64,000 nt of DNA from Escherichia coli (GCF_050920415.1 NZ_CP169309.1), one strand, 5' to 3'; shown: positions 22,531 to 49,310, counted from the first letter of the stretch. Notes: generated by a model not told the origin, from the sequence alone. A program made the numbers and translations.

Positions 22531-22620
22531 GTTCTTACGCCTCGGGCTGGCTACTTAACCCCTGACCACTGCCTGGTAACTCGAAGTATTGCCCTGCGTT
22601 CTGTGGGGCGGGGTGGTATA

Positions 22621-22650
22621 CTATAAAACTAAATCTATTTAGTTTTATAG
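22621..22650. promoter_or_regulatory. 30-bp near-perfect palindrome, candidate OL operator for the CI-like repressor (approximate coordinates)
   Basis: CTATAAAACTAAAT-CT-ATTTAGTTTTATAG with 14-bp arms; shares the TTTTAG/CTAAAA half-site with inverted repeats in the cI-cro intergenic region; preceded by TATACT. Confidence 0.4.
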
Positions 22651-22673
22651 TCAAGCGCGATCTAGATATATTT

Positions 22674-41236: not shown

Positions 41237-43202
<1,966 letters not shown>

Positions 43203-43937: not shown

Positions 43938-44348
43938 TTAGCGTGGAAAAATTTGAGTCGTGTTCTGGATGCTTTCGGTAAACAATAATGAGTTGTCAAA
44001 GGTATAGTAATATCTTTTGTGTTCGTGGATATTTGTAACCCATCGGAAAACTCCAGCTTTAGCCAGATTTACCCTGTATTCATGAAATGTGATTTCTCTT
44101 GATTTCAACTTATGAAGGTAAGTTTCTATAAGTCGCGTGTCTCTGCAAAAGCTAACATGAATAACATCATGGAAACCTTTTATTAACACCGTGTTATCGC
44201 TCTCAAATACAATGTGAATATTACCTGTGGCTAAATAGTAAATGTAATGTGAGACATTGTGGCGTTTTAGTTCAGAGTAAAACCGGTCACAGTTTAAATC
44301 TTTCCGCACTTGATCAAATATTTCTTTAAAAATGGCAACCTGAGCCAT
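43938..44348 (-). CDS. DUF1398-family protein (YbcV-like)
   Basis: 136-aa ORF adjacent to bor, same arrangement as borD-ybcV in DLP12. Confidence 0.65.
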
Positions 44349-44908
44349 CAGTATCCCCTTGTATATGATATGAGGGGCGTAGTCTGCATGAGTGCTTTTA
44401 ATACTGCAATCTGGTCAGATGTCTTTATCGTATATTGATGATTATTGTCGGATAGTATGAGGTTTTCTCAACTCATGGAAATACCGGAAGGTGCGAAAAT
44501 TACTAAGTAAGAAGAGTTACATAAGCCCTTCATACAGTGAAGGGCTTATGTAATCTTAGAAATAAAAAACCGGTCATAGGGAGCTACACAGAACCGGTCG
44601 GCGAAGACCGCCAATACCACCCATGCATCGATGCAACATACTAATGACAATAGCTGCTATTGATGTAAATGCAATGTTATGCATCGACGAAAATAAAAAA
44701 CCGGCAGGGGAAATCCATTGAAGACTTGCCGGTGGCAAAAGTTGCCAATGCTTTTATAACCGTAGTCACAGAGTTACGAAGTGCAACACCGACTGCTGCT
44801 GGTATATGGATGAATGGCGTTTCAATGATGTGCATCATTCAAATCACAAATAGTATTGATACTTATTCTCGGTTTTGCGGGTCCTTTCCGGTGATCCGGC
44901 AGGCTACG

Positions 44909-44920
44909 GGGCGGCGACCT
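44909..44920 (+). other. cos site: 12-nt cohesive-end sequence GGGCGGCGACCT (cosN), with cosB-like region extending toward nu1
   Basis: GGGGCGGCGACCTAGCGGGTTTTCGCTATTTA matches the lambda cos region; about 200 bp upstream of the small terminase gene. Confidence 0.75.
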
Positions 44921-45125
44921 AGCGGGTTTTCGCTATTTACGAGTTTTTTTGAGGTGATGGTTGTTGTTTTATCGTTTGATATATCTACTTGATAAGTAAT
45001 AAGAAAGAAAAATAAACACAACAACCTGATGATCTTTCTTATACGAAAAAGCATGTAAAATCAGAGGGTTTTACAAAAAACGTGGTTGTTGTATTGCTTT
45101 TTTGCCGGTGGTTTATGGAGGGGCT

Positions 45126-45603
45126 GTGGCCTTTTTATTGAATAAAAGCGACATGGCCTCCTCCATCGGTATCTCAGTACAGGCATTTGATAAATGGGGT
45201 GTTCCTCCTGTTGAGCGCCGGGGGAGAGAGGTTTTCTATGACGTTAAAACTGTACTGGAGATAGATCGCGAGCGACGTCAACAAAACCAGAAATCTTCAG
45301 GTGGTGAAAATGATCTTGAGGAAAGGCTACTTCAGGCCAGGGTTAACCTGACGGAAGAACAGGCTATTGCTCAGCGGTTAAAAAACCAGGTTGCAGAGCA
45401 TAAGGTGATTGATACAGCTTTCTCTATTTTTGCCCTGTCCCGGTTATCCGGAGAACTGGCATCTGTTTTGGACAGTATTCCGCTTTCGATGCAAAGAAAA
45501 TTCCCTGAATTGACAGGCAGACAATTGGCTTATCTAAAAGAGCTGGTTGCGAAGGGGGCTAATAAATGCGTTGAGTCCGCTGAAAAAATGAAGGAATTTG
45601 CGG

Positions 45604-45632
<29 letters not shown>
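45126..45632 (+). CDS. nu1: terminase small subunit (Nu1-like)
   Basis: ORF 45102..45632; central and C-terminal region aligns with lambda Nu1 (...TAFSIFALSRLSGELASVLDSIPLSMQRKFPEL); start uncertain (GTG 45126, TTG 45138 or ATG 45153). Confidence 0.8.

Positions 45633-49310
<3,678 letters not shown>

Follow-up and report, generated by a model that had tools for sequence, protein, structure and literature searches.

We propose that the Escherichia coli DNA analysed here, a stretch of 64,000 nucleotides that we refer to as the window, very probably carries a complete lambda-family cos at 44879-45125, made up of cosQ, cosN, an I2-like spacer and a tripartite cosB, and that the strong hairpin found to the left of it is a separate stem-loop that closes a cassette. 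The biology is not new: this is a lambda-family cos of a published specificity class, with a conserved hairpin in the adjacent accessory cassette. The cos lies in a lambdoid prophage that is integrated next to rspB in the E. coli chromosome, and positions 44350-45130 are 100% identical to strain MFDS1022581 (RefSeq). Its genes run in the order integrase, exonuclease, dicB, repressor/cro, Q, holins, endolysin, an IS21-family insertion, bor (-), a DUF1398 gene (-), small and large terminase, and lambda-like head and tail genes through J, and from this order we infer that the late operon crosses the cos region on the + strand; bor, the DUF1398 gene and two small units, A and B, lie antisense within it. 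The IS21-family element (istA/istB, frameshifted in the identical RefSeq genome) lies at 41237-43202, with the endolysin region on one side and bor on the other, and is adjoined by a frameshifted hypothetical gene. In the early region, coordinate mapping places the second-longest perfect palindrome of the window (22620-22651, ACTATAAAACTAAAT-CT-ATTTAGTTTTATAGT, AT-rich) inside the gene annotated as exonuclease.

The left part of the cos follows lambda closely. cosQ (GGGTCCT, 44879-44885, + strand) occurs once in the window, agrees with lambda at 7 of 7 positions and starts 30 bp before the first cohesive-end base, a spacing that is the same in lambda (48473-48479). The cosN core, the 12-nt cohesive end GGGCGGCGACCT at 44909-44920 (+), is likewise exact and unique: it matches lambda at all 12 positions, as a preliminary description of this DNA had held, and nowhere else in the 64-kb window is there a similar site with fewer than two mismatches. 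When the block 44877-44941 is aligned with the circularised lambda junction (48472-48502 plus 1-34), 61 of 65 positions are identical and the four differences (44899, 44904, 44921 and 44941) all lie outside the 12-mer; a mismatch within the cohesive end, the one observation that the preliminary description had named as fatal to its claim, is absent from the alignment. The left flank of the 12-mer, ACG, is retained. To its right, the I2-equivalent spacer between cosN and R3 (44921-44955, +, placed by alignment to lambda) contains GGGTTTTCGCTATTTA at 44924-44939, identical to lambda bp 16-31, and similarity to lambda ends at about 44941. The segment between cosN and cosB, called I2 by Feiss and colleagues, is needed for efficient termination (PMC4669245). 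By analogy with lambda (PMC9026076), the nicks are predicted to fall at 44908/44909 on the top strand and at 44920/44921 on the bottom strand, and the predicted top-strand nick is consistent with the database record of the related phage cdtI, which ends at the base homologous to 44908.

In cosB the resemblance is of another kind. The core motif GGTTGTTGT occurs four times in the window, where 0.48 copies are expected, and three of the four fall in cosB, within 134 bp of one another, with cores at 44959 (+), 45018-45026 (-) and 45084 (+); the resulting layout, with R3 forward, R2 inverted and R1 forward, is that of lambda. R3 (GATGGTTGTTGTT, 44956-44968, +) is a putative small-terminase binding site of N15 type. 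The experimentally defined R3 of N15 is GAGGTTGTTGTT, at bp 48-59 (PMC4669245), and the window has GATGGTTGTTGTT at bp 48-60, so that the two match at about the same distance from cosN, with the R core of the window offset by +1 bp relative to N15. The inverted R2 (45015-45026, -) reads AACACAACAACC on the + strand, and R1 (GGTTGTTGTATT, 45084-45095, +) carries the GGTTGTTGT core. In strain SA53-3, cosB is 72% identical overall, with 10 bp inserted between R2 and R1, and all three R cores are intact in it, R1 being conserved and R2 keeping its core while its flanks diverge. Between R3 and R2, in a position that fits I1 of lambda, lies a candidate IHF site (44969-44994, -) formed by two adjacent one-mismatch matches to WATCAANNNNTTR; the stretch 44982-44994 is kept in SA53-3, and the motif itself is no more frequent in the window than chance predicts (58 found against 56 expected). 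Inside terS (45126-45632), a search of both strands for GGTTGTTGT with up to one mismatch found no R-like site. The R sites may be expected to be bound by the small terminase through an N15-type specificity.

The terminase genes bear the same double signature. TerS (45126-45632, +) is a member of the Nu1 family (PF07471, E = 1.7e-21), with a GTG start that PGAP also chose in the identical RefSeq record. Among deposited phages it comes closest to gp1 of N15, at about 47-48% identity, compared with 37-39% for lambda Nu1 and about 26% for gp1 of phage 21. Over the first 44 residues, which comprise the N-terminal DNA-binding region, identity to N15 gp1 rises to about 84%, and the recognition-helix stretch GISVQAFDKWGV is identical in the two proteins; the C-terminal part is unlike both N15 and lambda. 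TerL (45604-47529, +), which has the GpA_ATPase and GpA_nuclease domains (PF05876, PF20454), is identical to lambda gpA at 622 of 641 residues (97%), and 16 of the 19 differences are crowded into its first 31 residues. The C-terminus of TerS contacts the N-terminus of TerL, and the divergence of exactly these two regions fits that contact, which suggests a second mosaic junction near terL codon 31, where the contact surfaces of the two proteins would have been kept together. Among relatives with common upstream DNA, the type of cosB and the type of TerS co-vary: four combine GGTTGTTGT sites with a terS of 507 bp, and two (phage phiSTEC1575-Stx2k and strain A2), in which homology to the window stops at about 44939, combine lambda-type CGTTTCC sites with a Nu1 gene of 546 bp. 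Judged by these alignments, cosB, TerS and the first 31 residues of TerL make up a separate module of N15/Monarch specificity, and cosQ, cosN, I2 and most of TerL are lambda-like. The preliminary description had called the 12-mer and the sequence adjacent to it lambda-like; it had missed that the likeness to lambda is confined to the cosQ-cosN-I2 block and that cosB and the small terminase are of N15/Monarch specificity.

In lytic growth, we would then expect the small terminase to bind the GGTTGTTGT R sites through its winged-helix domain of N15 type and thereby to place the lambda-type large terminase for nicking at 44908/44909 and 44920/44921; this would yield cohesive ends of 12 nt, and cosQ would be required when packaging terminates at the next cos. 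The earlier view that the region defines the ends of the packaged genome is thus borne out by the presence of cosQ, cosN, the I2-like block, a tripartite cosB and the Nu1 and gpA genes, by their lambda-like order and spacing, and by the end of the cdtI record at the equivalent of 44908. The finding locates the packaging origin of the prophage and the ends of its virion chromosome, and the assignment to the N15/Monarch class leads to a prediction of the helper phages or phage-inducible islands that might mobilise it. It also illustrates a known modular exchange, of cosQ-cosN-I2 and TerL on one side against cosB, TerS and the N-terminus of TerL on the other.

A single base complicates this account. 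The bottom-strand nick falls between bp 12 and bp 13, and base 13 (44921), which adjoins both that nick and the right edge of the cohesive end, is an A in the window. It is a C in lambda, N15, phi80 and 21, in all five relatives whose sequence spans 44921, and in four IMG/VR loci with window-type spacing, one further such locus having an A. The stretch 44872-44971 recurs identically in only one of 5426 complete E. coli genomes, and the eight next-closest genomes differ from it by one base each. The two base pairs that flank the cohesive end on each side have been described as rotationally symmetric parts of cosN (PMC9026076); in the window the symmetry of CG on each side is broken, as the right flank starts with A and not with C. 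The preliminary description, which took the adjacent sequence to be lambda-like, overlooked this atypical position. It is worth considering that the cos is a decayed relic, a cos by descent in a defective prophage that has lost packaging, with base 13 mutated. The C-to-A change is confined to the lineage of the window and touches one of the symmetric flanks; moreover, the IS21-family element (41237-43202) sits in the lysis region next to the frameshifted hypothetical gene, and the annotation of the identical RefSeq record includes no spanin gene, on which grounds the prophage may be lysis-defective. Yet cosQ, the 12-mer, the three R cores, terS, terL and the portal ORF are all intact, and a lysis-defective prophage would still be packageable by a helper phage. 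We consider the loss of packaging rather improbable, and regard it as possible that the prophage, given its base-13 A and the IS21 insertion in its lysis region, is no longer fully competent. The reading that we prefer remains that of a complete cos, with the hairpin as a separate element.

The DNA to the left of cosQ belongs to a different story. The gene that the preliminary description called ybcV-like is indeed a DUF1398 gene (43938-44348, -; PF07166, E = 1e-42), with a putative promoter-like site that matches the consensus at 44471-44444 (-) and begins 46 bp to the left of the hairpin. To its right, at 44480-44516 (+), lies a 3' remnant of a KilA-N/Rha-like ORF, recognised by sequence comparison with the locus L010 and homologous to the end of orf60 of cdtI, which matches phrog_10441 and phrog_129. 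In the window this remnant is still joined to the hairpin, which indicates, as far as the alignments go, that the bor-DUF1398 module displaced most of the KilA-N/Rha-like gene by recombination. Between the hairpin and cosQ lie the two small leftward units. Unit A (44677-44838, -) has an ORF of 53 codons (44838-44677), a CCGG...CCGG stem-loop at 44701-44732 and a U7 tract at 44690-44700; unit B (44560-44684, -) has an ORF of 36 codons (44684-44574), an ACCGGT stem-loop at about 44570-44599 and a U-tract at 44560-44569. The hairpin closes a cassette of one or two such units, each with its own terminator, and in cdtI-type phages unit A is followed by the hairpin with no unit B between them. Conserved copies of the two units occur in some 100 viral contigs and some 300 E. 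coli genomes, and the cassette is found ahead of no fewer than five different 12-mer cohesive ends and in company with two or more cosB specificities.

We note that the cassette is not an obligatory neighbour of cos. An alignment with lambda found nothing homologous to the hairpin upstream of its cosQ, and in a scan of viral contigs anchored on cosQ, nine of the 11 other lambda-type cos loci among the matches listed lack both unit A and a unit-like junction of T-run and CCGG, so that unit A appears optional upstream of cosQ within this set of cos-like loci. Since it is absent from lambda and most of these loci lack the cassette, the hairpin is, on this comparative evidence, not part of cos; it closes the neighbouring accessory cassette. 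In another IMG/VR locus (L176, 2531839178_000022), a canonical + strand terminator (GGCCGGAGAAATCCGGCTTTTTTTT) directly abuts the cosQ of a lambda-type cos, which indicates that the DNA upstream of cosQ is a variable slot for differing transcript-end elements.

The hairpin itself occupies 44517-44553 and consists of a perfect 16-bp stem (44517-44532 paired with 44538-44553; TTACATAAGCCCTTCA and TGAAGGGCTTATGTAA) around the 5-nt loop TACAG, with its end 356 bp before the 12-mer. The preliminary description was right that a hairpin is present here, but gave it a stem of 13 bp and a distance of about 370 bp. It folds at -26.5 kcal/mol on the - strand (z = -9.3) and at -28.2 kcal/mol on the + strand (z = -8.0), and no other perfect hairpin in the 64-kb window is as long; in first-order Markov simulations, perfect hairpins with 12 bp or more arise at 0.07 per 64 kb, and none reaches 16 bp. 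Its conservation was assessed on 103 sequences, namely the window and 102 IMG/VR loci retrieved through a conserved 41-mer of unit A. A homologous hairpin is present in 100 of the 103, directly beside the U-tract of the leftmost unit. In the 16 hairpin variants, 90.6% of cells are paired, as against 39-51% when the partner columns are slid; compensatory changes are seen at four pairs (C-G to U-A, G-C to U-A, C-G to A-U, and C-G to U-A), and the covariation score was reached by none of 500 shuffles. Because its pairing is conserved and covaries, we conclude from these alignments that the hairpin is under selection as a base-paired element. Homology between relatives breaks at 44517, 44542 and 44549, at or inside the hairpin, which therefore marks a module boundary, and a hybrid variant exists that has one arm of each type.

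These breakpoints and the hybrid variant could also be taken to mean that the hairpin acts at the DNA level, as a palindromic site for a protein, as a cruciform, or as a linker that promotes recombination between modules. We think this very unlikely: compensatory changes at four symmetric positions fit base pairing better than recognition by a protein, and homologous recombination would be expected to leave breakpoints at a conserved island even if that island had no dedicated role. A role for the paired element in RNA is favoured instead, and the difficulty lies in the strand on which it would be exerted. The + strand fold is at least as stable as the - strand fold in 15 of 16 variants, part of the energy gap arising from the loop alone; in the commonest variant, C-A mismatches on the - strand correspond to G-U pairs on the + strand, but in one common variant a wobble pair favours the - strand, and the wobble pattern gives no unambiguous strand. 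The sequence that follows the stem is no more decisive. On the - strand it is CTCTTCTT / CUCUUCUU in the window, with U at five of eight positions, and passes a loose terminator scan; in most other variants it is TGCCTGCT or TGCCGCAA (UGCCUGCU or UGCCGCAA), which is not U-rich. On the + strand the stem is followed by the A-rich AAATAAAAAA, and across variants by UCUUAGAA or UGUGAGAA. Across the variants examined, a conserved U-tract 3' of the stem is absent on both strands.

It is plausible, as far as such patterns can tell, that the hairpin is a two-way transcript-end barrier acting at the RNA level. Leftward, it would serve as a back-up stop or insulator against read-through before the DUF1398 promoter; rightward, it would block 3' exonucleases on transcripts of the upstream gene. 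The more familiar alternative, a Rho-independent terminator for leftward (minus-strand) transcription, draws on the terminator-like scan of the - strand (16 pairs and then CTCTTCTT) and on a position that, in the direction of leftward transcription, comes after the leftward units and before the DUF1398 promoter-like site. We regard it as somewhat unlikely, since the units already end in stem-loops with U7 tracts about 10 nt earlier, the hairpin following a canonical leftward terminator (stem-loop and U-tract), since most variants continue with TGCCTGCT or TGCCGCAA, neither of them rich in U, and since the mismatches of the commonest variant are C-A on the - strand and G-U on the + strand. A purely rightward function, as a 3' stabiliser or processing barrier for the mRNA of the upstream gene or the lysis region, where exonucleases would halt at the hairpin after cleavage in the A-rich stretch that follows, gains from the placement of the hairpin 12 nt after the stop codon of the rightward KilA-N/Rha-like ORF (orf60) in cdtI-type phages, from the ORF-end remnant still attached to it in the window, from a fold that in 15 of 16 variants is no less stable on the + strand than on the - strand, the commonest variant having G-U pairs there, and from the stem being followed by AAATAAAAAA. 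As the energy difference is owed in part to the loop alone and the wobble of one common variant favours the - strand, this too is rather unlikely as the whole explanation.

The two-way barrier that we favour would thus, we infer, not be a classical terminator, and the suggestion in the preliminary description that the hairpin may terminate convergent transcription can be kept in part. The structure is real and selected, and in related phages it does lie between convergent units. But it has no conserved U-tract; leftward, it would be at most a back-up after the canonical terminator, and rightward it lies in the late operon, where read-through is required to reach the terminase genes. The ybcV-like gene of the window, moreover, is not convergent with the hairpin and runs away from it. 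The hairpin may be compared with the bidirectional or intrinsic terminators and 3' stem-loops of moron cassettes, such as that of lambda bor, which likewise have a perfect, GC-containing stem between opposite-strand units, and like them it stands beside minus-strand accessory genes (bor, DUF1398) within the late operon; it differs in having no conserved U-tract, in following a canonical terminator, and in the unusual length of its 16-bp stem.

The nature of units A and B is a separate matter. That they form a hitherto undescribed prophage family, of small RNAs or of very small proteins, is distinctly unlikely in our estimation. In some variants the ORF of unit B is truncated, and in the commonest one the terminator stem of the unit looks weak by eye. 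In the ORF of unit A, a 2-nt indel shifts the frame of the C-terminal half between variants and one variant has a premature stop; pN/pS over the first 29 codons is 0.64 in the reading frame, compared with about 1.0-1.15 out of frame, in pairs that are non-independent, which is a weak hint of coding constraint. Scans of the unit ORFs against Pfam and PHROG gave no match, and an exact look-up returned only entries named 'hypothetical protein' from E. coli. Between 43300 and 45700, a region that includes both units and the hairpin, there is no Rfam 15 covariance match at an E-value of 1 or below; a promoter scan found none for either unit; and a full-text search of the literature found no paper with the unit sequences, and a search of the supplement of the Pas preprint did not find them either. 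We rejected an identity with the Pas sRNAs of EPEC, because PasB maps between the tail genes I and J in E2348/69, PasA, PasC and PasD1 lie beside the holin/lysozyme operon, and prophage PP6 of E2348/69 carries an HNH/terminase module that is HK97-like and lacks a lambda-type cos; the AgvB/AsxR class was rejected as well, its sRNAs lying downstream of PR' (PMC4104026). The units do resemble prophage-encoded Hfq-dependent sRNAs (AgvB/AsxR, Pas, Esr41) in being short, intergenic, prophage-borne and antisense to the late operon and in ending with a stem-loop and a U-tract, but differ from them in location, none of those sRNAs (AgvB/AsxR, PasA, PasB, PasC, PasD1) having been described at cos. In lambda, the right end is the last part of the virion chromosome to be packaged and the first to enter the cell. 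If the units were such a family, they would be encoded at the very right end of the virion chromosome and hence be among the first sequences transcribable after injection.

The cos that we describe can be placed among known systems with some precision. It shares with lambda a cosQ that is identical at 7 of 7 positions and at the same spacing, a cohesive end that is identical at 12 of 12, the GGGTTTTCGCTATTTA block of I2, the succession of R3, inverted R2 and R1 (with a candidate I1 between the first two), and a TerL that is 97% identical; it departs from lambda in its R sites, which are of the GGTTGTTGT and not of the CGTTTCC type, in a longer spacing between R2 and R1, in a TerS that is 39% identical and has a different recognition helix, and in base 13, which is A rather than C. 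With N15 it has in common the core of R3 (GGTTGTTGTT) and the recognition helix of TerS, identical to that of gp1. In contrast to the window, whose cosB is tripartite and without rR2, N15 has one R site and a remote rR2 inside gene 1, and its cohesive end, GGGCGGCGTCCG, differs by two changes from that of the window, which is lambda's. The start of terS lies at bp 218 in the window, at bp 191 in lambda and at bp 89 in N15. The Monarch group, as described by Feiss et al. (2015), combines an N15-like R3 and recognition helix with three R sites and an IHF site and has no rR2 (PMC4669245), and the window agrees with it in its tripartite cosB and in the absence of an rR2 inside terS, and has a candidate IHF site as well. 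By these features the cos of the window is of the tripartite, N15-specificity type of the Monarch group, an assignment that was matched to the published description of the group and not to a Monarch sequence. As that group has been described already, the type of cos was known before, and what the window carries is an ordinary lambda-family cos of the published N15/Monarch class.
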